The notes under the pieces were generated by a model. That model was not told where the DNA came from. It was given only the letters and a program-made list of their open reading frames with translations, and ran no database searches. A DNA stretch of 64,000 nucleotides. Origin: a virus (taxonomy: Duplodnaviria; Heunggongvirae; Uroviricota; Caudoviricetes). The translations under genes were made by a program, and so were the position numbers. Location of the stretch: positions 64,001 through 128,000 of the IMG/VR virus record IMGVR_UViG_3300020045_008999. One strand, given 5' to 3'. Positions 1,357-64,000 of the stretch are shown one piece after another (within the stretch, counting starts at the first letter, position 1; each line of letters begins with the position of its first letter).

Positions 1357-2034
1357 TTATAACAATCCATCTTTTATTTCTTCTAATAAATCATTAAAGT
1401 TTTTCATATTCAATGTTCCATCAGTATTCCATATTTCGAAATGTCGTTGATACTTTAAAACCATTCGAATAGTTGGTGCATCACATGAAGAAATGATATT
1501 TGGTATCTGGCTTCTTTCTGATGTGATCAAATTGCCCATTAATTCAATATCGGTGTTGCCCGCAAATGTCGATATTAATCTAGGATTTTGACCAACTTGT
1601 AAGTTTCCAAGTATTTTTTCCGCGCAACCTACCAATGACTCTAAATTGTTTACAGCTACATTATAATTACCACCTACATGTATAGGTCCATCGATTAGAT
1701 TTACTATTGAATTATGAGTACATATAAAATCGCCATGTATTTTCTTCGGGCAAAATTTTAATGAAGTAATACGATTTCCTGAACAATTAAAGCTGCCACC
1801 TACATATTTAGGACATCCTTTTAAAGTAGATAATGTTTGATTCTTACATATAAAACTACCACCAACTATATTAAATTTAAGTGGAATATTTTTATACTTA
1901 TATCCTAATATAATATTCACATTACCATCAACATTAATAGTGCGGTCGCTATTAATTGTATAATTCCTAATGCCTAATTCTCTACATAATCCATCTATAG
2001 CATTTTTTTCATCCTGAGTAATTATATTCTTCAT
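1357..2034 (-). CDS. LRR-like repeat family protein
   Basis: N-cap MKNIITQDEK..ID, 22-aa GG-F-C--N-LTSL-G-P repeats, C-cap LKYQRHFEIWN..EIKDGLL. Confidence 0.9.
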   Translation of the reverse strand: MKNIITQDEKNAIDGLCRELGIRNYTINSDRTINVDGNVNIILGYKYKNIPLKFNIVGGSFICKNQTLSTLKGCPKYVGGSFNCSGNRITSLKFCPKKIHGDFICTHNSIVNLIDGPIHVGGNYNVAVNNLESLVGCAEKILGNLQVGQNPRLISTFAGNTDIELMGNLITSERSQIPNIISSCDAPTIRMVLKYQRHFEIWNTDGTLNMKNFNDLLEEIKDGLL

Positions 2035-16384: not shown

Positions 16385-17002
16385 TTATTCTAATCCATCG
16401 TTTATTTCATCTAACAGTTCTTGGAATTTTAACACATTCAGTGATAAATCATCGTTCCAAATCTCAAAATGTCGTTGGTAGCGAAGAATTATAGGCATGT
16501 GGTGGCGATTAATATAGATAAAATTTGGTAAAGCAGCTGCTAACGCATGTATTTTACCGATTAAGTCAATATCAGTGTAACCACTAAATGTATTGTTCAA
16601 TTGGCGATTTACACCACATCTAATATCTATTCCAATATATTCCGGGGCACCCTCTAGAGAGGTCAGTGAATTACCTGATAACCAGATACTACCGCCTACT
16701 GATATTGGTCCTCCGAATAAATTGGTTAAGTGGTTGGAAGAAACATCGAAGTCTAGACCAACAGATCTTGGTGCGTTATGTAAAGTGGTTATTACATTAG
16801 TTGAACATGTGAAGTCACCACTCACTTTGCCAAATTTTATAGGAATCGTAGCCAAATTAAGTCCTTCCATAAATACTGATCCATTCACATTTACAACGGC
16901 TTCTCGATTTGAATCTACGTCAATAGTATAATTCTGTATATTATATTGTTTACACAACATATTGATACGATCTAATTCACCTTTACTAATTATATTTTTC
17001 AT
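16385..17002 (-). CDS. LRR-like repeat family protein
   Basis: N-cap, repeats, LRYQRHFEIWN..EINDGLE C-cap. Confidence 0.9.
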   Translation of the reverse strand: MKNIISKGELDRINMLCKQYNIQNYTIDVDSNREAVVNVNGSVFMEGLNLATIPIKFGKVSGDFTCSTNVITTLHNAPRSVGLDFDVSSNHLTNLFGGPISVGGSIWLSGNSLTSLEGAPEYIGIDIRCGVNRQLNNTFSGYTDIDLIGKIHALAAALPNFIYINRHHMPIILRYQRHFEIWNDDLSLNVLKFQELLDEINDGLE

Positions 17003-34192: not shown

Positions 34193-34297
34193 ACAAATAT
34201 TTCACATAGGAATCAAACCGATAAATAACTCCACTAATTTGAATTCAATAATTGAATTGTGCTCAATTTGTAAATGGGTATTATAATATATAGCTAT

Positions 34298-34903
34298 ATG
34301 AATAACATCATTAGTAAAGAAGAAAAGGATCACATCGACAAAGTGTGTAAGTATTACTGCATCAGTAATTATTCGTTTAATCCGGATGGGTCAATTAATG
34401 TTGATGGTGACGTGAGTATAAGAAATTCAGAACTGAAAATTCTTCCTATTAAATTTGGTAGAGTAAGTGGTGGGTTTAGTTGTAGTAATAATACTCTGAG
34501 GTCACTTGTGGGGGCACCACATACGGTAGGCGGTAACTTCACTTGTTCGTTCAATTATTTGACTTCATTAATAGGGGGTCCTAGTGTGGTGGGTGGTATT
34601 TACACGTGTGGGTATAACCAACTGATTTCACTTAATGGATTAGCAGAGTCAATTGGTGGTATTTTCACTTGCAATGGTACTCGTGCATTAATATCAACTT
34701 ATTCAGGTGACGTGGATGTTGAAATTGCAGGTTATTGTGAAATTGTACAATCGGGAATACCAGAAATAATAGATGAGCATAGACAGTACCTTAATATAAT
34801 TTTAAAATACCAGCGTCATTTCTTGATATGGAATGATGATTTATCACTCAATGAAATCAATTTTCAAGAACTTCTGGATGAGATAAAAGATGGTCTCTTA
34901 TAA
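34298..34903 (+). CDS. LRR-like repeat family protein
   Basis: Family start MNNIISKEEK at 34298; repeats; LKYQRHFLIWN..EIKDGLL. Confidence 0.9.
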   Translation: MNNIISKEEKDHIDKVCKYYCISNYSFNPDGSINVDGDVSIRNSELKILPIKFGRVSGGFSCSNNTLRSLVGAPHTVGGNFTCSFNYLTSLIGGPSVVGGIYTCGYNQLISLNGLAESIGGIFTCNGTRALISTYSGDVDVEIAGYCEIVQSGIPEIIDEHRQYLNIILKYQRHFLIWNDDLSLNEINFQELLDEIKDGLL

Positions 34904-53847: not shown

Positions 53848-54288
53848 ATGAGTACCATACTAATAAGAACTACACAGATTGATTTATTATTAGGCAATAC
53901 TAATCATGTAATTGATTATTTTAATTCATTGTGGGCCACATTACACATTATAGAAGTTGATGTATATCACAAAAGCGGCGGAGAATTTATATATTATACA
54001 TTAAACAAGCTTGGGAATAAAGAATGGATTTTTTACCAAGATGTCGCCGCAAGTCATTTTTGGTGCAATTATTCTAAATATTGGATCGTTTTTTGTGTAG
54101 AGTTCGATCTTACGTACACTGAAACCCAGACCATTACGAAAATATTAATAGATAATGCATTAAAAATTAGCGTAGAATCTCCTATTGCATTTGGTCTCAA
54201 TAATTATAATGTAATTATAAATTCCAATAACGCAACTGTACACGCCAGTCGAGCAAATTTATGGTCAGAGATTCATAATGTTATATAA
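53848..54288 (+). CDS. N-terminal RxxxIDLxL family protein
   Basis: IRTTQIDLLLG..VYHKSGGEFIYY..EWIFYQD..FWCNY..YW; close paralog of 53324..53788. Confidence 0.8.
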   Translation: MSTILIRTTQIDLLLGNTNHVIDYFNSLWATLHIIEVDVYHKSGGEFIYYTLNKLGNKEWIFYQDVAASHFWCNYSKYWIVFCVEFDLTYTETQTITKILIDNALKISVESPIAFGLNNYNVIINSNNATVHASRANLWSEIHNVI

Positions 54289-54302
54289 TTCTAAGTATTA
54301 CA

Positions 54303-55136
54303 TTATTCTAAACCATCTTTGATTTCGTCAAGTAATACTTGAAAATTCACATCATTCAATGAAAGATCGACATTCCAGATTTCAAAGTGTCGCTGATACT
54401 TCAAGATCAATTTAATATTCTCTATATTATCGATAATCAATTGCGGTAGATTATGCTCGCGGCAATTAAATTCACCGTTAAACTCTATATCAACATTTCC
54501 GGAATAAGTGGATATTATTCCATTTCCATGACAATAAAATGATTCACCCACTGTGCTCGGTGATCCATCTAGTGTAATTATTCGATTTTTAATACAAAGA
54601 AAACTACCACCAATTGTGTCCGGAGCACCCACCAACGAAGTTATTTCATTATGCGAACAAGAAAAATCACCACCAACCGAAACCGGGGATCCCTCTAGTG
54701 AAGTTAATTTATTATCAAAACACGTGAAGTCCCCAGTAACTGTACGTGGTGCACCCACCAACGAGGTTAAATTATTAGAATTGATATCAAATGAACCACC
54801 AATTGTATCCGGAAATCCTTTTAATGACGTTACATAATTATCATAACAATAAAAACCACCACCAACTGTAATAGGACCACCTTCAAGTGAAGTTAATTTA
54901 TTATATGATGCATAAAAATTACCACCTACAATACGTGGCGCACCAAATAAGTTGGTTAATATATTACCATTGCATATAAAGTTTCCACTAACCTTATTAA
55001 AAGTCAATGGCAAAGTTAGCAATTTCTCATATCTTAGATCTACATCCCCATCAACATCAATCGATCCGTCAGAATTTATTAAATAGTTGAAAATTTGGTA
55101 TTGATTACATACCGAAACAATTTGATATTTTTTCAC
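54303..55136 (-). CDS. LRR-like repeat family protein (GTG start or +1 frameshifted from ATG 55158)
   Basis: Repeats and C-cap intact; MNNLINK from ATG 55158 is out of frame by one base. Confidence 0.85.
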   Translation of the reverse strand: MKKYQIVSVCNQYQIFNYLINSDGSIDVDGDVDLRYEKLLTLPLTFNKVSGNFICNGNILTNLFGAPRIVGGNFYASYNKLTSLEGGPITVGGGFYCYDNYVTSLKGFPDTIGGSFDINSNNLTSLVGAPRTVTGDFTCFDNKLTSLEGSPVSVGGDFSCSHNEITSLVGAPDTIGGSFLCIKNRIITLDGSPSTVGESFYCHGNGIISTYSGNVDIEFNGEFNCREHNLPQLIIDNIENIKLILKYQRHFEIWNVDLSLNDVNFQVLLDEIKDGLE

Positions 55137-55271
55137 TTTTATTGATTAAATTATTCATCTATTATATTAATACAGAAGAGTTAAATGCATTCAGAAAGCA
55201 CACATAGAAGCACTAAAAAAAGTAAAGATAATTATTTCCAATCAATATACTATTGTAAAAGTGATAAAAAT

Positions 55272-55952
55272 TTAATCCAATGTAAATATAGATTCCAGCC
55301 CATCATTGATTTCTGCTATTAAATCATTGAAGTTTTCCACATTCAATGACAAATCAGGGTTCCATATATCAAAATATCGCTGGTATTTTAGAATCAATTT
55401 AATCTGGTCCATATTATCGATTATTAGTTGTGGTAGCATAGTATTTTTTAAATAGATATAACCAATTAAGTCTATATCAACATCACCGGAATATGTAGAA
55501 ATTAATTCACTGTTAGAACATTGCCAGTTATTAATTGTGCGTGGTGCTCCATCAAACGAAGTTAATTTATTTTCGAAACAAGAAAAGACACCACTAATTG
55601 TTGTTGGTGATCCCACTAATGAAGTCAGTTTATTATTAGAACAATAGAAATTTCTACCCACCTTTTCCGGAGCACCAAATAATGTAGTCAATTTGTTATA
55701 CCCACAAAGAAAACTACCACCAACCGTAGTCGGACCGCCGGCCAAAGTAGTTAATTCATTACCTGAACAATAAAAATCTCCGGTTACATTGTTGAATACT
55801 AGTGGGAACTCAGTTAAAATTCCACGAGATAAACTGACATTCCCGACAACATCAATTGATCCATCCGAATTTATTGAATAGTTTTGTATTTTATATTTTT
55901 TACAAATTTTATCAATTCGGTCTTTTTCTTCTTTGGTAATTAAATTTTTCAT
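55272..55952 (-). CDS. LRR-like repeat family protein
   Basis: N-cap, repeats, C-cap with short extension. Confidence 0.9.
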   Translation of the reverse strand: MKNLITKEEKDRIDKICKKYKIQNYSINSDGSIDVVGNVSLSRGILTEFPLVFNNVTGDFYCSGNELTTLAGGPTTVGGSFLCGYNKLTTLFGAPEKVGRNFYCSNNKLTSLVGSPTTISGVFSCFENKLTSFDGAPRTINNWQCSNSELISTYSGDVDIDLIGYIYLKNTMLPQLIIDNMDQIKLILKYQRYFDIWNPDLSLNVENFNDLIAEINDGLESIFTLD

Positions 55953-55976
55953 GAGTTAACGCAGTTTGTCTATATA

Positions 55977-56579
55977 TTATTCTAATCCATCTTTAATTTC
56001 ATCAAGTAATATTTGGAAATTTACACCATTCAAGGATAGATCATCATTCCAAATCTCAAAGTGTCGCTGATACTTCAGAATCAGTTTAATATGTTCAATA
56101 TTGTCCTTTAAGGATTGTGGTAGATTACGCAATGAATAGGAAAAGACCCCACCCAACTCCACATCAACATCACCTGAATAAGTAGTGGATAATTTATCAT
56201 CAATGCAAATTAAATCCTTACCTATTGTACCAGGTAAACCCACTAACGAAGTTAAAATATTGTACGAACAACTAAAATTACCACCCACTACAATCGGTGA
56301 GCCCTCTAATGACGTTAATCCATTCCAATGGCATAAAAAACTACCACCAACTGTTTTAGGTGCCCCGTGCAACGAAGCTAAATGGTTTGAGCTACAATAA
56401 AATCCCCCGCTCACATTACCAAATACCAATGGTATTTTTTTTAATTTCTTACTTTGTAAATTAACATCACCATCCACATCTATAGATCCATCGGGGTTAA
56501 TTGAATAGTTTACTATTTTATATTTATTACAAATTGAATCAACACGATCCTTTTCCTCTTTACTAATTAAGTTTTTCAT
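55977..56579 (-). CDS. LRR-like repeat family protein
   Basis: Family start MKNLISKEEK at 56579; TTTTATATATAG at 56584-56595 (-). Confidence 0.9.
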   Translation of the reverse strand: MKNLISKEEKDRVDSICNKYKIVNYSINPDGSIDVDGDVNLQSKKLKKIPLVFGNVSGGFYCSSNHLASLHGAPKTVGGSFLCHWNGLTSLEGSPIVVGGNFSCSYNILTSLVGLPGTIGKDLICIDDKLSTTYSGDVDVELGGVFSYSLRNLPQSLKDNIEHIKLILKYQRHFEIWNDDLSLNGVNFQILLDEIKDGLE

Positions 56580-56664
56580 ATTTCTATATATAAAATTTGG
56601 CATAATGTTAATGACGTTATAAATTTTTTTATATTTGTATTTTATAAAGCTAAATATATAAAAA

Positions 56665-57093
56665 ATGCTTCTTTCGAAAACCATAAAGACTATTTTAACA
56701 TCAATATTTGATATTGATTATGCAAATGACACAAATAAAATTGAATACTTTCGATTCAAAGACAAATCTATTAGTACCGATCAGTTTTATATGGGATATG
56801 ATATCGATTATCAGATAAAAAAACCGTATCTTCTAGTAGGTTATTATTTCGATAACCAACAATCTGGTGAAAGTCATCGCTTGTATTCACTTGAAATTAA
56901 TTACGATCATTTCTCAGATTTCACATATGGTAAAATAATAATGCAAAAAGACTATAAATTACCAATTACTGCATGTAAAATATTTTATGACTTAAACATA
57001 CTAGTATGCTATTATGACATGGGTATTGTTACCATTGCATATGATAGTAAAATGATAGCGAGAAATATTGCAATTGATGATATTTTACAATAA
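56665..57093 (+). CDS. DKSISxDxFY family protein with C-terminal tag
   Basis: FKDKSISTDQFY; ends IARNIAIDDILQ. Confidence 0.75.
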   Translation: MLLSKTIKTILTSIFDIDYANDTNKIEYFRFKDKSISTDQFYMGYDIDYQIKKPYLLVGYYFDNQQSGESHRLYSLEINYDHFSDFTYGKIIMQKDYKLPITACKIFYDLNILVCYYDMGIVTIAYDSKMIARNIAIDDILQ

Positions 57094-57137
57094 TTTCAAA
57101 GACATCGTATATCACTACCACCATCTAAATTCATTTA

Positions 57138-57602
57138 ATGATTCAACAAATTAAACCAGATATTAAATTGAGACAAATTATGAAGTCGGTAGAAAAAATA
57201 CGTAATGTGTTATCATTGATTTTTGACATTATGATGAGTGATGGTACTGATGGAATTGAATACCTTTATTTCAAGGACAAATCAATTAGTAGTGATCGTT
57301 TTTACATAACATACAAAACCGATAGCTATAAAAATAATGGACATGAAATTGACTATTGCTTTGATAATATGAAAAAGGGTGCAAAATCTCGGGACTATTC
57401 ATTAATAATTAATTGTAATAATCTTACCAATGACATAATAGGTGAAATAACTATGAATGATGATTATAAATTATCTATTACTGCCTGTAAATTCTTCTAT
57501 AGATTAAATATAAAAATTTGGTATTTTGAAGATAATGCTCTAATAGAATATGATGGCGCAATGATTCAGAGAAGTATTACTATTGATGATATTTTATTCT
57601 AG
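57138..57602 (+). CDS. DKSISxDxFY family protein with C-terminal tag
   Basis: FKDKSISSDRFY; ends IQRSITIDDILF. Confidence 0.75.
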   Translation: MIQQIKPDIKLRQIMKSVEKIRNVLSLIFDIMMSDGTDGIEYLYFKDKSISSDRFYITYKTDSYKNNGHEIDYCFDNMKKGAKSRDYSLIINCNNLTNDIIGEITMNDDYKLSITACKFFYRLNIKIWYFEDNALIEYDGAMIQRSITIDDILF

Positions 57603-58268
57603 ACCATCTTCAATTTCACCCATCAAATCTTTGAAGTTTTCAATATTTAAAGTTAGATCATCATTCCATATAACGAAATGACGTTGGTACTTCAATATTA
57701 ATGAAATCGTATCCGGATCACATGATAAAATCTCATTTGGTATTTTGCTATTTCTGTTAGTAAGCAAGCGGCCCTTTAATTCAATGTCTGTGTGACCGGA
57801 CATGGTGGTTGATAGTAGATGGTTTTGACTAACTTGTAAATTACCATTTATTGTTTCTGCACAACCCACAAGTGTTTGTATATGGGTATTATATGCGCTG
57901 TAATCACCATTCACATAACTCGGCCCACCTACCAAATCAGATAATGGATTTTGCTCACATAAAAAATCACGATGTATTTTATTAGGTGCAAAATTAATGG
58001 AAACTAGGGCATTATTTGCACAGTCAAAAGTACCACCTACATATTTTGGACAACCTAGTAACGAGGTCAGTGAATTATAATTACAATAAAAACTACCAGT
58101 TACATTATTGAAGCGTAGTGGAATCGCGAGCAACCCGTTGAGACTTATATTGACACTACCATTCACATCTAACGAACCATCCGCATTAATTAAATAGTTT
58201 TTGATGTTGTATTGTTCACATATGGTATCAATTCGATCCTTTTCCTTTTTGCTTATTAAGTTTTGCAT
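57594..58268 (-). CDS. LRR-like repeat family protein
   Basis: N-cap, repeats, C-cap; closest in pattern to 1357..2034. Confidence 0.9.
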   Translation of the reverse strand: MQNLISKKEKDRIDTICEQYNIKNYLINADGSLDVNGSVNISLNGLLAIPLRFNNVTGSFYCNYNSLTSLLGCPKYVGGTFDCANNALVSINFAPNKIHRDFLCEQNPLSDLVGGPSYVNGDYSAYNTHIQTLVGCAETINGNLQVSQNHLLSTTMSGHTDIELKGRLLTNRNSKIPNEILSCDPDTISLILKYQRHFVIWNDDLTLNIENFKDLMGEIEDGLE

Positions 58269-58377
58269 GTACTAGCTTGGGTTATTTACCTATATATAAA
58301 ATTCAGAAGGATATTAAAGTTAACAAAAATGTTCATTATATTTGTACCCGGTCTTGACGATATTAATAAATCTAAAT

Positions 58378-58815
58378 ATGGGTAATATGAATACAAATTA
58401 TAAAATATATGACGTGTTGACTATTATTTTTAATGTGGTAATCAATATTGATGAGGATACAATTGATTATATTCAGTTCACCGATAAATCTATTAGTTCC
58501 GATCGTTTTTATATTACATATGCAAAAACTGTTAAGGGAAAGATAGGTGATCTAGTTGATTGTACATTTGATAATAATAAAATCGGAGATGATAATCGCA
58601 ATTATTCCTTAGAAATTGTGTGTGATAATACTAACAGTTTCAAGTTTGGTGCATTAACAATGGGTGCAGATTATAAACTAACTGTTGATAATTGCCGTTT
58701 CTTCTATGCTTTAAATATATCAATTTCTTATTACAATGATGATATTTCCGATATAATTGAATATGATGAGGTAGCAATTAAGCGAAGTATTACAATCAAT
58801 AATATTTTACAATGA
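58378..58815 (+). CDS. DKSISxDxFY family protein with C-terminal tag
   Basis: FTDKSISSDRFY; ends IKRSITINNILQ. Confidence 0.75.
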   Translation: MGNMNTNYKIYDVLTIIFNVVINIDEDTIDYIQFTDKSISSDRFYITYAKTVKGKIGDLVDCTFDNNKIGDDNRNYSLEIVCDNTNSFKFGALTMGADYKLTVDNCRFFYALNISISYYNDDISDIIEYDEVAIKRSITINNILQ

Positions 58816-58832
58816 CACTATTATCGATGTAC

Positions 58833-59435
58833 CTATTCCAATCCATCTTTAATTTCATCCAGCAGCTCTTTGAAATTATCCTCATTCAATGTAAGGTCTT
58901 CATTCCAGATGTAAAAGTGTCGCTGATATTTTAGAATTAATTTAATATGTTCAATATTGTCCTTTAAGGATTGTGGGAGTTTATTTTGTCCTAAAAAAAT
59001 ATCACCAGTCACTTCAATATCAATATCACCAGAATAAGTACAAATTATATCAGTATTGGTACTGATATAATCACCACGTACTATACTAGGCGATCCTATT
59101 AATGAAGTTAAATTATTATGAGAGCATTTATAATCACCACCCACCTCATTCGGTGACCCCACCAATGATGTTAATTTATTATTAGAACAATTGAAGCCAC
59201 CATCCACAGTAACCGGTGCGCCATCTAATGATGTCAATGCATTTGTATAACAATAAAAATCACCACTCACTTTTCCAAATCGCAATGGTATTTTTGTGAA
59301 AGTTTGCCAAACCAGAGCTACTGACGCATAAACATCTAGCGTGCCATCCACATTGACAGAATATCCTATTATATTATATTTTTTACATATTGAATAAATT
59401 CGATCATTTTCTTCTTTGTTAATTAAGTTAGTCAT
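58833..59435 (-). CDS. LRR-like repeat family protein
   Basis: N-cap, repeats, C-cap; best in-window match to CRISPR spacer 4. Confidence 0.9.
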   Translation of the reverse strand: MTNLINKEENDRIYSICKKYNIIGYSVNVDGTLDVYASVALVWQTFTKIPLRFGKVSGDFYCYTNALTSLDGAPVTVDGGFNCSNNKLTSLVGSPNEVGGDYKCSHNNLTSLIGSPSIVRGDYISTNTDIICTYSGDIDIEVTGDIFLGQNKLPQSLKDNIEHIKLILKYQRHFYIWNEDLTLNEDNFKELLDEIKDGLE

Positions 59436-59548
59436 GACCTATATATAAAACCCGGTAGTTACTGAATGTTCCAGTATATGAATATTTAATAAAAAATGTG
59501 AGTGAATATAACAAATAAATTAGGATATAATCAAATCAATTTTTATGT

Positions 59549-61204
59549 TTGTATTCTAAAATATTAAATATGCCCAGTACCGGAATTTATTTACAATGCG
59601 AGTATAATCTTGCCACAATAGAATACGATAATTTATATTACAGCAAATCAAAAAATAATAGCAATGGGAATATGCTTGCCCTGCAAATCAACAAAGATGG
59701 GTTTATCTTAGGTGATTATGATGCTGCTAAAAATAAACTTTTCAACATAACTAGTCCGTACGACAAATCACTTATTAATGAAGTCGATAATGTAGTAACC
59801 CCATTAGTCATAAATATACAACAAAAGTTATCCCCCACATCATCAGAATATCACCTGATGTTGACTTCCAATAAAATAAGAAATTTAGCATTGGGCATCT
59901 GGAAAAAATCGTATGATCGAATGAAACTAAGAATGCCGAGCAACTATATTTATAAGCATAGGGACGAGGAATATATAACAGTACCTACTTTACACAAGCA
60001 TAAAACCGATCAAGAGTATTTAAGAATAGAAGTCGAAAAGATTCTAGATGATCCTTACTATGTGGTATCAGAATTTGATGTTATAGGAATTTTGCGCGAG
60101 GTAAAGCACCCACTTTTTTATAGCATACCACCGGCCACGTCAGCCGCTACTGTAGGGCATACATTTTCAGAAATTAAATCTTATTTAGCCGCATTAAAAA
60201 AGTGGTTCACTAATACGACAGAAGATATGCCAAAATGCCCCGGGTTCAAAAATAGTAAATCGTTATATAAAATTACATTTCAAGGTACGAGCCAATTAAA
60301 GGTGACTAAGAATATTACACTACCAAGTCTCAAAAAATTTAATTTGTCCGATATAGTACCCATTGTTATACCTTCCAAAGTTACCGGGGACATCAAGACA
60401 GTTAGCTTTGTCCCATGTAGAAAAGGGTTTATGATTAGTATTACTTATAATAATACCCACAAAGCATTAATGGCATATAAGGATGAAACTTGGATGGGTA
60501 TCGATCCGGGTGTTAGAAATGTACTGGCGATAGAAACCGCTAAAACTAGCAGGGTATTTGATGGATCGGCATTCTTATCCGAACAAAAACATTATCAAAA
60601 TAAAAAGGATAAAATGCAGTCTGTTTTAATGACCAACAAGGATAACGTGATAATGGTTGATGGTCTAGTTAGATGTAAAAAAGGTGCACTCAATACCAAA
60701 CGGTTCAGAGCTCTCAGTTTAAAGCATAATAATAAGGTTGACAATTTCGTACATAAAATAACGGCTGAGATTATCAATATTTGTAAAGCTGATGGAATTA
60801 CTAAGATTTTCTTCGGGCAAAATATCAATTGGAAAAAAGGTAAAAAAATGAGTAAAAAGAATCATGTTCAATTTACTGCTATTCCACATGCCAAGATACT
60901 TGAAAAATTAACATACAAGGCAAAATTGATCGGGGTTGAAGTAATTGGACAAGAAGAAAGTTACACTAGTAAATGTTCATTTCTCGACAACGAACCAATA
61001 CGTAAACATTCCTCATATAAAGGAAATCGTAAACTTGGTCTATTTAAAACTGCAAATGGTATAATAATAAACGCCGATAGTAATGCAGCCTTAAACATCG
61101 CAAAAAAATCATTAAATGCACTGGAAGCTAAAGGGCAGATTATTAACCCACTACCAATAAAATGGTCCGGATGTCATCCAAAAAAAGAAAAAATATTCAA
61201 ATAA
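59549..61204 (+). CDS. tnpB: TnpB/Cas12-like RuvC nuclease, CRISPR-adjacent
   Basis: WMGIDPG (RuvC-I), IFFGQNINWK then QEESYTSKCS (rearranged RuvC-II Glu clade), INADSNAALNI (RuvC-III); 551 aa, longer than typical TnpB; ATG also at 59570. Confidence 0.85.
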   Translation: MYSKILNMPSTGIYLQCEYNLATIEYDNLYYSKSKNNSNGNMLALQINKDGFILGDYDAAKNKLFNITSPYDKSLINEVDNVVTPLVINIQQKLSPTSSEYHLMLTSNKIRNLALGIWKKSYDRMKLRMPSNYIYKHRDEEYITVPTLHKHKTDQEYLRIEVEKILDDPYYVVSEFDVIGILREVKHPLFYSIPPATSAATVGHTFSEIKSYLAALKKWFTNTTEDMPKCPGFKNSKSLYKITFQGTSQLKVTKNITLPSLKKFNLSDIVPIVIPSKVTGDIKTVSFVPCRKGFMISITYNNTHKALMAYKDETWMGIDPGVRNVLAIETAKTSRVFDGSAFLSEQKHYQNKKDKMQSVLMTNKDNVIMVDGLVRCKKGALNTKRFRALSLKHNNKVDNFVHKITAEIINICKADGITKIFFGQNINWKKGKKMSKKNHVQFTAIPHAKILEKLTYKAKLIGVEVIGQEESYTSKCSFLDNEPIRKHSSYKGNRKLGLFKTANGIIINADSNAALNIAKKSLNALEAKGQIINPLPIKWSGCHPKKEKIFK

Positions 61205-61229
61205 TGTTGTGTGTGAATATATAAAGATA

Positions 61230-61237
61230 TATATTTG
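61230..61237 (+). promoter_or_regulatory. Bacteroidota-type -7 promoter box
   Basis: TATATTTG(CAC) between nuclease stop and CRISPR array. Confidence 0.6.
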
Positions 61238-61249
61238 CACCAGTAAAAT

Positions 61250-61360
61250 AATAGGTCGTGAGGCCTTAGCATAAGAAATGCATTGCTTGTAAAAGTATTC
61301 ATTGACAATGTAAGTGGCACGGTGTATGCCCAGAATAGAGTTAATATATTAACTTGAACA
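61250..61360 (+). ncRNA. candidate scaffold (omega/tracr-like) RNA or structured leader
   Basis: Consecutive hairpins incl. AGGTC-GTGA-GGCCT (GNRA loop), GGCA/TGCC, AGTTAA-TATA-TTAACT. Confidence 0.4.
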
Positions 61361-61482
61361 AAATACCAAATAAATTGAAATTGATAATCGGTTATTTCAC
61401 AACATAGATATGAGTTTTATTTCATTTTTTATAAAGAGAATTGAAGATAAACCTAGTGTTTGTAAAGCATTGCGAGGGATAG

Positions 61483-61915
61483 GTTGGGGATGACTACAAT
61501 TTGAAAGGTATATCCACCGGCAAATGGAATCAAAATGGGTTTCGGTAAGTTGGGGATGACTACAATTTGAAAGGTATATCCACCTACCGACGTCTTTAAG
61601 TTCAATTACGTTAGTTGGGAATGACCACAATTTGAAAGGTATATCCACCTCGTGTTGATTAATACAGTGTATTTATATTTGTTGGGGATGACCACAATTT
61701 GAAAGGTATATCCACCAAGAACTACTAGAAGAGATTAAAGATGGATGTTGGGGATGACTACAATTTGAAAGGTATAACCACCGTTAGAGTAGTTTAGGTC
61801 TTCTTTGCGATAGTTGGGGATGACCACAATTTGAAAGGTATATCCACCTTGTTTGATCTTGGAATTGTGATGTTTTTGTTGGGGATGATCACAATTGTAA
61901 AAGGCATGTTCCACC
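61483..61915 (+). CRISPR. CRISPR array, 7 repeats / 6 spacers
   Basis: 36-nt GTTGGGGATGAC(T/C)ACAATTTGAAAGGTATATCCACC at 61483, 61549, 61614, 61681, 61747, 61813 and degenerate 61878; spacers 30, 29, 31, 30, 30, 29 nt. Confidence 0.97.
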
Positions 61916-61951
61916 TTATCATAAACGGTACAATAATATTAAAAACCAATT

Positions 61952-62233
61952 ATGAATTACACTAGGCCGAATAATATTGATCATGAAGATACACCAGAAG
62001 ATATTCTTAATGGTGCATTGATTTTTTGTAGAACAATTAGTATTCTTCTTGAAGATAATACGGGAATTATTGTTGGGTTACATGGTGATATGCGAAGTCC
62101 AACAAATAAAAAAAATGCTACTAAAGTTGTTGTATTCAAAAGTCATAACATGATCCATATTGATGATATTTCGGATGAAGAAGAAGAAATATTATTAGAG
62201 GGTCAATTAATCGCAATACAAAAGGGTAATTAA
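61952..62233 (+). CDS. hypothetical protein
   Basis: 93-aa ORF directly after the array; no Cas2/Csx27/Csx28 features recognised. Confidence 0.65.
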   Translation: MNYTRPNNIDHEDTPEDILNGALIFCRTISILLEDNTGIIVGLHGDMRSPTNKKNATKVVVFKSHNMIHIDDISDEEEEILLEGQLIAIQKGN

Positions 62234-62251
62234 TTTTTGATAATTTTCCAT

Positions 62252-63052
62252 CTATTCCAACCCATCTTCAATTTCGGCGATTAGTTCATTAAATTTTCCA
62301 ACATTCAACGAAAGATCATCATTCCAAATCTCAAAATGTCGTTGATACCTCAAAATTATTTTAATATGTTTTAGATTATCAATAAATATTTTAGGTAACA
62401 TATGATCGTAACCGGAATATCCGCCGCCATATTCAATATCGACATCCCCTGAATACGTCGATATAATACTGTTTCTAAAATATTGAATATTGCCACCAAT
62501 TGTGGCAGCACAGCCTTTTAATGAAATAATTGAAGTGTTTCCACCAAAATTATAATCACCACCTACTGTTTTTGGACCACCTACTAAATTAGTTAGGCTA
62601 TTACCAGCACAGTTAAAAGAGCCGGTAACTGTCGATGGACTACCAATTAAATTCAATAGCTTATTCCCGGTACACGTAAATGTACCAGTGATCATATCTG
62701 GAACACCATCAAGTGCTGATATTGCATTCGCGGTTATTATATAATCTCCACCAACAATACTAGGACCACCTACCATCGAAGTTAGATTCCAACTATAAGA
62801 ACAAATGAAATGACCACCCACTGTGTGTGGAAATCCATCGAATGTATATATCCCCAATGAAATACAAGTGAAATCACCTGTGATTTTACCAAATCTTATT
62901 GGTAATTTATTGATTTCCGTATAGTTTTTTAAATTAACGTCACCGTTTACATCAATAGAGCCATCCGAATTTATTGAATAGTTTTGTATTTCATATTTTT
63001 TACAAACTTTATCAATTCTATCTTTTTCTTTTTTAGTGATTAAATTTTTCAT
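62252..63052 (-). CDS. LRR-like repeat family protein
   Basis: N-cap, repeats, C-cap. Confidence 0.9.
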   Translation of the reverse strand: MKNLITKKEKDRIDKVCKKYEIQNYSINSDGSIDVNGDVNLKNYTEINKLPIRFGKITGDFTCISLGIYTFDGFPHTVGGHFICSYSWNLTSMVGGPSIVGGDYIITANAISALDGVPDMITGTFTCTGNKLLNLIGSPSTVTGSFNCAGNSLTNLVGGPKTVGGDYNFGGNTSIISLKGCAATIGGNIQYFRNSIISTYSGDVDIEYGGGYSGYDHMLPKIFIDNLKHIKIILRYQRHFEIWNDDLSLNVGKFNELIAEIEDGLE

Positions 63053-63065
63053 ATACCTATATATT

Positions 63066-63710
63066 TTATTTTAATCCGTCTTTTATTTCTGTTATTAAGT
63101 CATTGAAATTATTTACATTCAATGTAAGATCCTCATTCCAGATTTCAAAGTGTCGCTGATATTTTAAAACTAGGGGTATGTGATCGTGATTATCGTCAAA
63201 TTGTAGTGGTAGATTATTTCCATGTAAGTAAACAGCTCCACCAATTTCTAGGTCAGCATAACCGGTATAAGTGGATGATAATTTATTTCTTTGGCATGAG
63301 AAATCTCCAACCACTACTGTGGGTGCACCCTCTAATGAAGTTATTTGATTAAAGTGGCAGTAGAAATCACCACCAACTGTAGTAGGTGCGCCCTCTAATG
63401 AAGTTAATATACTATACATACATGAAAAATCCCCACCAACGGTAACCGGAGCACCCTCTAATGTAGATAGTTGATTATTATAGCACTGAAAATTACCACC
63501 TACCGATGATGGACCTCCTACTAATGAAGACAAATCATTATTAGAACAATAAAAATCGCCACTTACTTTTCCAAATCGTAATGGTAATGTAGTTAGCAAT
63601 CCTTTGGAAAATTTAACATTACCATCCACATCAATAGAACCATCTGAGTTAATGGTATAATTTTTAATTTTATATTCGGTACAAATTGAATCGATATGGT
63701 CCTTTTCCAC
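63066..63710 (-). CDS. LRR-like repeat family protein (GTG start)
   Basis: Repeats and C-cap intact; in-frame ATG 63737 is separated by a TAA at 63720-63722. Confidence 0.85.
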   Translation of the reverse strand: MEKDHIDSICTEYKIKNYTINSDGSIDVDGNVKFSKGLLTTLPLRFGKVSGDFYCSNNDLSSLVGGPSSVGGNFQCYNNQLSTLEGAPVTVGGDFSCMYSILTSLEGAPTTVGGDFYCHFNQITSLEGAPTVVVGDFSCQRNKLSSTYTGYADLEIGGAVYLHGNNLPLQFDDNHDHIPLVLKYQRHFEIWNEDLTLNVNNFNDLITEIKDGLK

Positions 63711-63778
63711 TTTTATTGATTAAATTATAGGTTTCATATTCATATTTATTAAATATAAATTAAATTTCGCGTCATATA

Positions 63779-64000
63779 CTATTTCAATCCTTCGTCAATA
63801 TCATCTATTAACATCTGAAAGTTTTCCTCGTTCAAGGTTAAATCATCATCCCATATAAAGAAGTGTCGCTGGTACTTTAAGATCAATTTAATGCGATTGT
63901 CATAAAATGGGTCGTGATATAGATTATTAACATAAAGGTAAATACTCCCACCAATTTCAATATCAATATCACCGGAATAAGTAGAAGTTAAATTATTACT
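63779..64000 (-). CDS. LRR-like repeat family protein, 3' part (runs off window)
   Basis: ..LILKYQRHFFIWDDDLTLNEENFQMLIDDIDEGLK-stop read from the minus strand. Confidence 0.85.
   Translation of the reverse strand, partial: SNNLTSTYSGDIDIEIGGSIYLYVNNLYHDPFYDNRIKLILKYQRHFFIWDDDLTLNEENFQMLIDDIDEGLK

Follow-up and report, generated by a model that had tools for sequence, protein, structure and literature searches.

A CRISPR spacer of a 597-kb phage that resembles the carrier's own expanded repeat-protein family: a possible guide against related phages

Introduction

Virus-borne CRISPR arrays directed at other viruses are the closest described precedents for the locus reported here. Medvedeva et al. 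2019 (PMC6858448) described arrays of this kind in the portogloboviruses SPV1 and SPV2, whose spacers are directed against closely related viruses, and the same paper cites phage mini-arrays whose targets in close relatives are adjacent genes. Virus mini-arrays were modeled by Iranzo et al. 2020 (PMC7099407), who also discussed the cost of imperfect self-matching spacers. For huge phages, passages of Al-Shayeb et al. 2020 (PMC7162821) describe Cas1-less systems and compact arrays, with a type I variant and a small type V effector among them, and infer that the spacers are aimed at competing phages, some being directed against host genes.

Here we describe an array in a tailed phage, one spacer of which resembles the DNA of its carrier. 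The stretch analyzed (the window) comprises 64,000 nucleotides, positions 64,001-128,000 of IMG/VR record IMGVR_UViG_3300020045_008999; coordinates below are those of the window unless they are given as genome positions. The full record is 596,785 bp long, has a GC content of 31.9% and is rated 98% complete by IMG/VR. The carrier of the array is a viral genome: this contig has the tail sheath and endolysin-like genes of a tailed phage, along with 18 tRNAs and a tmRNA.

The likeness to SPV1 and SPV2 extends over several features. In both cases the array is carried by the virus, a spacer is nearly identical to a gene of the carrier, which would be spared by point differences, a related genome has a deletion at that position, the array has the best-matching locus as its neighbor, and the virus has no adaptation genes. 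The differences lie in the carrier, here a tailed phage of 597 kb that brings two effectors of its own, a TnpB-derived nuclease and a type I-Fv-like system; in the matched gene, which comes from a family of at least 91 copies and gives dozens of own near-matches, not one; and in the perfectly matching reciprocal rival, which was not found for the 597-kb phage in the collections searched. With the huge phages, as passages of PMC7162821 portray them, it shares a compact array, here with six intact repeats and a degenerate seventh, the lack of Cas1, Cas2 and Cas4, and a small type V-like effector beside the array in addition to a variant type I system. However, the effector in those passages is CasPhi, whereas here it is a 551-aa protein whose nearest relatives are TnpBs of about 400 aa at about 30% identity, and text searches of that paper show no spacer resembling a multigene family of its carrier. 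On this comparison, the phage fits the known virus-borne interviral arrays in every feature tested except the decisive one, a perfectly matching rival. Our best explanation, to which we give about even credence, is that this spacer (spacer 4) is a guide acquired from a related phage, perhaps out of the ortholog there of the gene adjoining the locus, and serves heterotypic exclusion.

The CRISPR array and the CRISPR-associated genes

The array occupies 61483-61916 on the + strand and consists of six good 36-nt repeats (61483-61848), with the sequence GTTGGGGATGACYACAATTTGAAAGGTATATCCACC, a degenerate seventh repeat at the terminus (61879-61916), and six spacers of 29-31 nt. Within the 596,785-bp genome the repeat is confined to this array, and it has no match in IMG/VR or in GTDB genomes, the latter thus yielding no host array with this repeat. 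The array begins 278 nt downstream of a co-oriented gene for a 551-aa TnpB-derived, Cas12-like nuclease (59549-61204, + strand), which lies directly upstream of it. The 278-nt non-coding segment between them (61205-61482, + strand) is about 97% identical to that of the only related phage found, whereas identity is 88.6% over the aligned block 59473-61512, made up mostly of the nuclease gene; its main difference from positions 3884-4170 of the relative's 4.2-kb contig is a single 15-nt duplication. Such conservation suggests a conserved RNA, which might be a scaffold, a tracr-like RNA or a leader. A search for an anti-repeat gave no convincing candidate, the repeat-flank duplex energies falling inside the shuffle range; Rfam gave no match on 59000-62300; and a promoter and terminator scan of 61100-62300 returned nothing exceeding shuffles. 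Four features make transcription of the array from the + strand most likely: the degenerate repeat stands at its right end; a conserved leader separates it from the nuclease gene; array and gene are co-oriented; and its GTTGG-first polarity is that of the type I arrays of this phage, which are situated downstream of the respective cas genes.

The 551-aa protein scores above the cut-offs of both Pfam OrfB_IS605 and Cas12f1-like_TNB. The RuvC residues D319, E469/E470 and D510 are conserved, so the catalytic triad reads as intact and the enzyme is predicted to be active. It does not reach the curated score of a named Cas12 subtype model (56 bits with NCBIfam Cas12f2 against a cut-off of 450), and guided_TnpB gives 95.6 against 100. 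A riverine metagenome contig of 4.2 kb encodes its sole close homolog, which is 87% identical; the remaining homologs are TnpBs of about 400 aa that align at about 30% identity to the C-terminal two thirds. The N-terminal extension of about 140 aa (59549-59970) is common to the 87%-identical relative only and has no counterpart in the approximately 400-aa TnpBs. Sequence searches of the PDB gave no match, and IMG/VR holds no relatives of the nuclease besides the phage's own record, in which it is the only TnpB-like gene.

A second, type I-Fv-like system lies outside the window, at genome positions 559,651-566,989 and 595,592-596,513. Its genes (559.6-565 kb) encode Cas3, a Cas7fv-like protein, an unassigned 337-aa protein and Cas6, and its two arrays (565,060-566,989 and 595,592-596,483) hold 38 spacers in total between repeats of the sequence GTTGGTACTTATAGTAATCCGTAAGGGAATCACAAC, which is absent from GTDB genomes. 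Possibly the array beside the TnpB-derived nuclease derives from this type I system and was co-opted by the nuclease. No Cas1 was found anywhere in the phage genome, and Cas13 models match none of the large ORFs without an assigned function. Interference genes, as known from sequence, are thus at hand in the form of the adjacent nuclease with its conserved triad and, elsewhere, of Cas3, the Cas7fv-like protein and Cas6. Since both the RuvC-intact nuclease and the Cas3-containing system are of kinds that act on DNA, DNA targeting is plausible.

The LRR-like gene family

At least 91 paralogs of a repeat protein are distributed over genome positions 33-220 kb, a range that includes the window, many of them in head-to-tail runs, and the family makes up roughly a tenth of the phage genome. 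Its members share a layout of an N-terminal helix, a variable number of 21-residue repeats and a C-terminus of the form KYQRHFxIWNDDLTLNxx followed by NFxxLLxEIxDGLE. One 200-aa paralog (58833-59435, - strand) adjoins the nuclease gene in divergent orientation. Its structure model, with a pLDDT of 96, is a solenoid with helical caps. The best PDB matches of this model are weak and fall on the LRR domains of IpaH/SspH (E 0.017, TM 0.4), and the top AlphaFold-cluster match is a 212-aa cellular protein with 40% identity and a TM of 0.75, in which the C-terminal cap is covered. AlphaFold-cluster matches of the family carry both the names "pentapeptide repeat" and "LRR", and Pfam, LRR models included, gives no match at E <=0.01. 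LRR-like is a fair label for a family whose kinship with the LRR proteins proper is putative.

The family is rare outside this phage, with about 30 non-self proteins among 5.8 billion, and has no homologs in IMG/VR besides the phage's own record. Two otherwise diverged paralogs share an identical tract of 36 nt (56085-56120 and 58941-58976), which agrees with a possible exchange of segments between paralogs.

Spacer 4 and its near-matches in the phage genome

Spacer 4 (61717-61746, + strand), read in the family's sense frame as xAA GAA CTA CTA GAA GAG ATT AAA GAT GGA T, gives (K/Q/E)ELLEEIKDG, the C-terminal end of the LRR-like family. The best own near-match (58841-58870, - strand) lies in the 200-aa paralog beside the nuclease gene and agrees at 25 of 30 positions. 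Its five mismatches (5, 8, 11, 14 and 17) all fall on third codon positions, four of them being synonymous and that at position 14 exchanging E for D (GAA to GAT), and the last 13 nt are identical; its 5' flank, AATTTCA, corresponds to the N-F codons plus one base. Matches of 24/30 are found at 34866-34895 (+ strand; C-terminus of paralog 34274-34903; flank AATTTTC), 1365-1394 (- strand; paralog 1357-2034, ending in LLEEIKDGLL), 16393-16422 (- strand; paralog 16385-17002) and 55985-56014 (- strand; paralog 55977-56684), and the window holds two more sites at 23/30 and seven at 22/30. A first-pass annotation of the window, made from its letters, had quoted the spacer and its family reading exactly as re-read here; recomputation likewise returned its positions and its count of identities for the best match, its 24/30 site preceded by TTTC, and its range of about 22-24/30 for other paralogs (three more at 24/30, and those at 23/30 and 22/30). 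The E-to-D exchange at position 14 is absent from that annotation.

Over the whole genome, 28 sites lie within eight mismatches of spacer 4, and all except one, a chance match with eight mismatches, occupy the same in-frame position at the C-terminus of a family member. Six sites besides the best one have six mismatches, and no site with fewer than five exists in the 596,785-bp record, 98% complete as it is. The suggestion in the first-pass annotation that the guide might be aimed at a paralog elsewhere in the genome is thereby refuted as far as the assembled record goes.

A resemblance of this degree might arise by chance in AT-rich DNA. Indeed, one of 300 random 30-mers drawn from unrelated AT-rich contigs reaches five mismatches in the genome, and in very large collections ELLEEIKDG is also encoded by two genes that are unrelated to the family and agree with the spacer at 24-25/30. 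Against this, none of 300 shuffles of spacer 4 comes as close as five mismatches (their best matches have 6-10, mostly 8-9), and the mean number of sites within eight mismatches is 0.4-0.95 in the controls, as against 28 observed, of which 27 belong to one family at one in-frame position. Moreover, the spacer is identical to the family consensus at every invariant column. Because shuffles never reach five mismatches and fewer than one site within eight is expected, the resemblance is, by these sequence comparisons, homology, and the flank table (see below), the consensus comparison and the shuffles effectively refute chance, whose probability we regard as negligible.

The distance of spacer 4 from the phage's own copies is of an ordinary size. 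At the equivalent site, the median nearest-neighbor distance among own paralogs is 4, with 39% of them at 5 or more, and paralogs on the relatives' contigs lie 2-7 from the nearest own copy. A distance of five from spacer 4 to the nearest own copy would thus be typical of one more family member. Nor is the site the most conserved sequence of the family, as had been proposed: mean pairwise identity is 0.655 over its 30 nt versus 0.78 in the KYQRHF-IWN block 55-61 nt upstream, and it is among the less conserved parts of the family's C-terminal 100 nt. The guide is therefore specific for particular paralogs and would reach one or a few copies in a rival, not the family as a whole.

Resemblance to own DNA is seen in only one of the 44 spacers of the phage, namely spacer 4, and in none of the other 43 (five in the window array and 38 in the type I arrays). 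Bacterial self-targeting spacers are comparable in resembling the DNA of their carrier. They differ in that self-targeting is usually defined by a perfect match, or one with at most about two mismatches, in the same genome, whereas the minimum here is five and there is no perfect self-match, so that spacer 4 does not count as one of them.

The 5' flank and the PAM-proximal mismatches

All 89 family sites tabulated have the 5' flank AAYTTYN or a near variant of it, because the site follows the conserved N-F codons, and a donor copy would therefore carry a T-rich 5' flank too. T-rich 5' flanks are of the kind used by Cas12 enzymes and several type I systems. TTY plus one base, present 5' of all family near-matches, is thus a PAM candidate. 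At every own site, at least two mismatches to spacer 4 fall within the first 14 PAM-proximal nucleotides, in line with the seed-side changes that the first-pass annotation had ascribed to the phage's own copies. PAM-proximal mismatches of this number would block R-loop formation by Cas12 and TnpB enzymes and at the seed of Cascade.

A guide transcribed from the + strand has the sense sequence, and therefore cannot pair with family mRNA; it would pair with the template strand of the DNA. The first-pass annotation had likewise taken the same-sense orientation to fit DNA targeting and not Cas13, and the likely + strand transcription, the DNA-targeting effectors and the lack of a recognizable Cas13 bear this out. 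Taken as a whole, its interpretation holds as regards the family origin of the spacer and the plausibility of DNA targeting, and fails as regards a target elsewhere in the genome and the choice of a most conserved site.

These data also bear on the idea that the guide acts on the phage's own paralogs in spite of the mismatches, either repressing copies or nicking them to provoke recombination and diversification. It would suit this idea that the best near-match lies in the very gene adjoining the locus, that the paralogs are mosaic, and that the last 13 nt are identical to those of several copies. Yet the identical stretch lies at the PAM-distal end, the two or more mismatches near the PAM would prevent R-loop formation at every own site by what is generally known of Cas12, TnpB and Cascade, and the sense-strand guide leaves the mRNA out of reach. 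We therefore consider such action very improbable.

A related phage

Only one relative was found, as fragmentary contigs from a single riverine metagenome run (Logan sample SRR31615993). Around the CRISPR locus it is 80-89% identical to the window, and its 4.2-kb contig keeps the gene order. At this level of identity, orthologs should differ at 4-6 positions in every 30 nt, and chiefly at wobble positions, as is seen between spacer 4 and its best near-match. On the 4.2-kb contig, the ortholog of 58833-59435 is a remnant of the 3' third of the gene (contig positions 1950-2140), the 5' two thirds being missing, and a gap of about 37 bp within the remnant removes the ...DNFKELLDEIK stretch, that is, the flank and most of the protospacer-like site.

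The 4.2-kb contig ends in the first repeat; the riverine contigs, aligned over 54000-64000, show the relative but break at repeats, and spacers are mostly invisible in them. On another contig of the relative, however, positions 1-100, aligned with window 61819-61916, hold the same degenerate terminal repeat and flanks with a different last spacer, TAACAAGAGTTTCCAAGGAATCTCAATCAT. Given the same flanks and a different last spacer, the content of the array changes faster than its flanks diverge. The relative's last spacer has no match in the 597-kb genome, and no reciprocal targeting was seen.

Searches for a target or donor

Spacer 4 is exactly matched in no IMG/VR or JGI metagenome contig. A wobble-degenerate pattern for xELLEEIKDG gave one match in each of these two collections, and both were rejected: one lies in a phage ORF and one in a gene resembling short-chain dehydrogenases, both unrelated to the family, and they differ from the spacer by 5-6 nt. 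Searched against cultured phages (INPHARED; blastn, E up to 10), the whole array gave chance-level matches only. In about 35 kb of contig stretches from the relatives, the best matches to spacer 4 have 6-7 mismatches, and the other spacers match nothing. None of the family homologs among 5.8 billion proteins ends in ELLEEIKDG. For the other five spacers of the window array no target was found in the phage's own genome or by blastn against cultured phages, and the first 24 nt of spacers 1, 2 and 5 were not found in IMG/VR.

These results count against a guide from a kindred phage: no collection searched holds a perfect or near-perfect protospacer; no family protein among 5.8 billion has the ELLEEIKDG end, and the relative's stretches differ by 6-7 mismatches; the other five spacers of the array have no target found; and, with no Cas1 found in the phage and no host array bearing the repeat found in GTDB genomes, spacers have no evident route into the array. 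The same results lend themselves to the view that spacer 4 is a relic or an accident, that is, own or kindred DNA captured by host adaptation proteins or recombination, the source copy having since been lost, converted or diverged, with no selected function today. Stray spacers would readily come from a family that takes up roughly a tenth of the genome; segment exchange of the kind that the 36-nt tract suggests could have overwritten a source copy in the phage itself; and own paralogs often lie five or more from their nearest neighbor. A perfect self-match would, however, be lethal with an active nuclease, and five evenly spaced wobble differences resemble orthologous divergence, whereas escape usually takes one or two changes in the PAM or seed. 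Furthermore, the other 43 spacers show no bias toward own DNA, and the difference in array content between close relatives argues for turnover under selection. On balance, a relic comes next after our preferred reading, and we think it rather unlikely.

The true target might instead be a cellular or mobile-element homolog, for instance a host gene whose product carries this C-terminal cap. The fold does have cellular relatives, among them the 212-aa protein noted above (40% identity, TM 0.75), one family homolog comes from an NCBI assembly, and phage spacers against host genes are reported in passages of PMC7162821. Against this stand the absence of the spacer from every genome and metagenome contig searched and the lack of any contig that encodes the peptide in family context, the two pattern matches being unrelated genes. 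In addition, the identity over the last 13 nt, third positions included, points to close kin and not to a protein of 40% identity. We hold this alternative to be decidedly improbable.

Spacer 4 as a possible guide against kin

In the reading we prefer, spacer 4 would be a 30-nt segment from the 3' coding end of an LRR-like family member that the phage itself lacks, most likely taken from a related, coinfecting phage and possibly from its ortholog of 58833-59435. The array would be transcribed from the + strand into a repeat-spacer crRNA with the sense sequence. In the target gene this crRNA would base-pair with the template strand, and it would direct one of two effectors to cleave the rival's DNA: the type I-Fv-like complex or the adjacent TnpB-derived nuclease, whose RuvC domain is putatively active. 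The cut would be made beside the T-rich stretch, TTY plus one base, that the conserved Phe codon provides on the 5' side, and the carrier would be spared by the differences of its at least 91 own copies, which number five or more per copy and include PAM-proximal ones. In this way a virus-borne array would bring about heterotypic superinfection exclusion. We observe that the spacer stems from the family, that the genome has no own target, that the nuclease triad is intact and that array content turns over between relatives; the donor, the PAM, transcription with processing, and cleavage are what we infer. The biological claim that spacer 4 is a targeting guide thus goes a step further than the observations.

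Several lines of evidence favor this reading. The mismatches to the best own copy fall on wobble positions alone, the pattern expected of orthologs under purifying selection, and a distance of five is what one more family member would typically show. Only one of 44 spacers resembles own DNA; 27 of the 28 sites within eight mismatches fall on the same position at the family C-terminus, none in the 98%-complete genome comes closer than five mismatches, and all 89 family sites tabulated have the AAYTTYN-type flank that a donor would share. As for the machinery, the RuvC triad is intact, and Cas3, Cas7fv and Cas6 are present. The different last spacer of the relative indicates fast change of array content, the best near-match adjoins the locus, and the matching stretch is deleted in the relative's remnant. 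Finally, the reading parallels the virus-borne arrays of Medvedeva et al. 2019 (PMC6858448), as well as the Cas1-less systems and compact arrays against other phages described for huge phages in passages of PMC7162821. The adjacent gene 58833-59435 as the specific source is suggestive only, since it rests on a single mismatch, five against six for six other sites.

One may go further and regard the mosaic, expanded family as a kin-recognition barcode, in which lineages carry guides against paralog alleles that they lack and their rivals hold, with exclusion by CRISPR driving turnover, point divergence, deletion of 3' ends and diversification of the family. A possible example would then be the gene remnant that adjoins the related phage's nuclease gene. 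This is a speculation to which we assign a low probability.

Should spacer 4 indeed be a guide against kin, a phage-borne CRISPR system would here provide a clean example of near-self discrimination, the guide coming from a family of about 90 copies of which the carrier holds none that is targetable. Interviral conflict by means of virus-borne arrays would then be extended, beyond prophages and small archaeal viruses, to a phage of 597 kb, one that carries two effector systems, of which one is a little-diverged TnpB derivative. The locus also offers a natural test set for the mismatch tolerance of the nuclease, in the form of one perfect guide and 27 graded own near-targets.

Two further observations concern the arrays themselves. 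The repeats GTTGGGGATGACYACAATTTGAAAGGTATATCCACC and GTTGGTACTTATAGTAATCCGTAAGGGAATCACAAC are both 36 nt long, begin with GTTGG and, by a count made by eye, agree at 19 of the 36 positions, and the spacers are 29-31 nt long with both repeat types (window 61483-61848; genome 595,592-596,483). The phage contig ends just past the last type I-Fv-like array.
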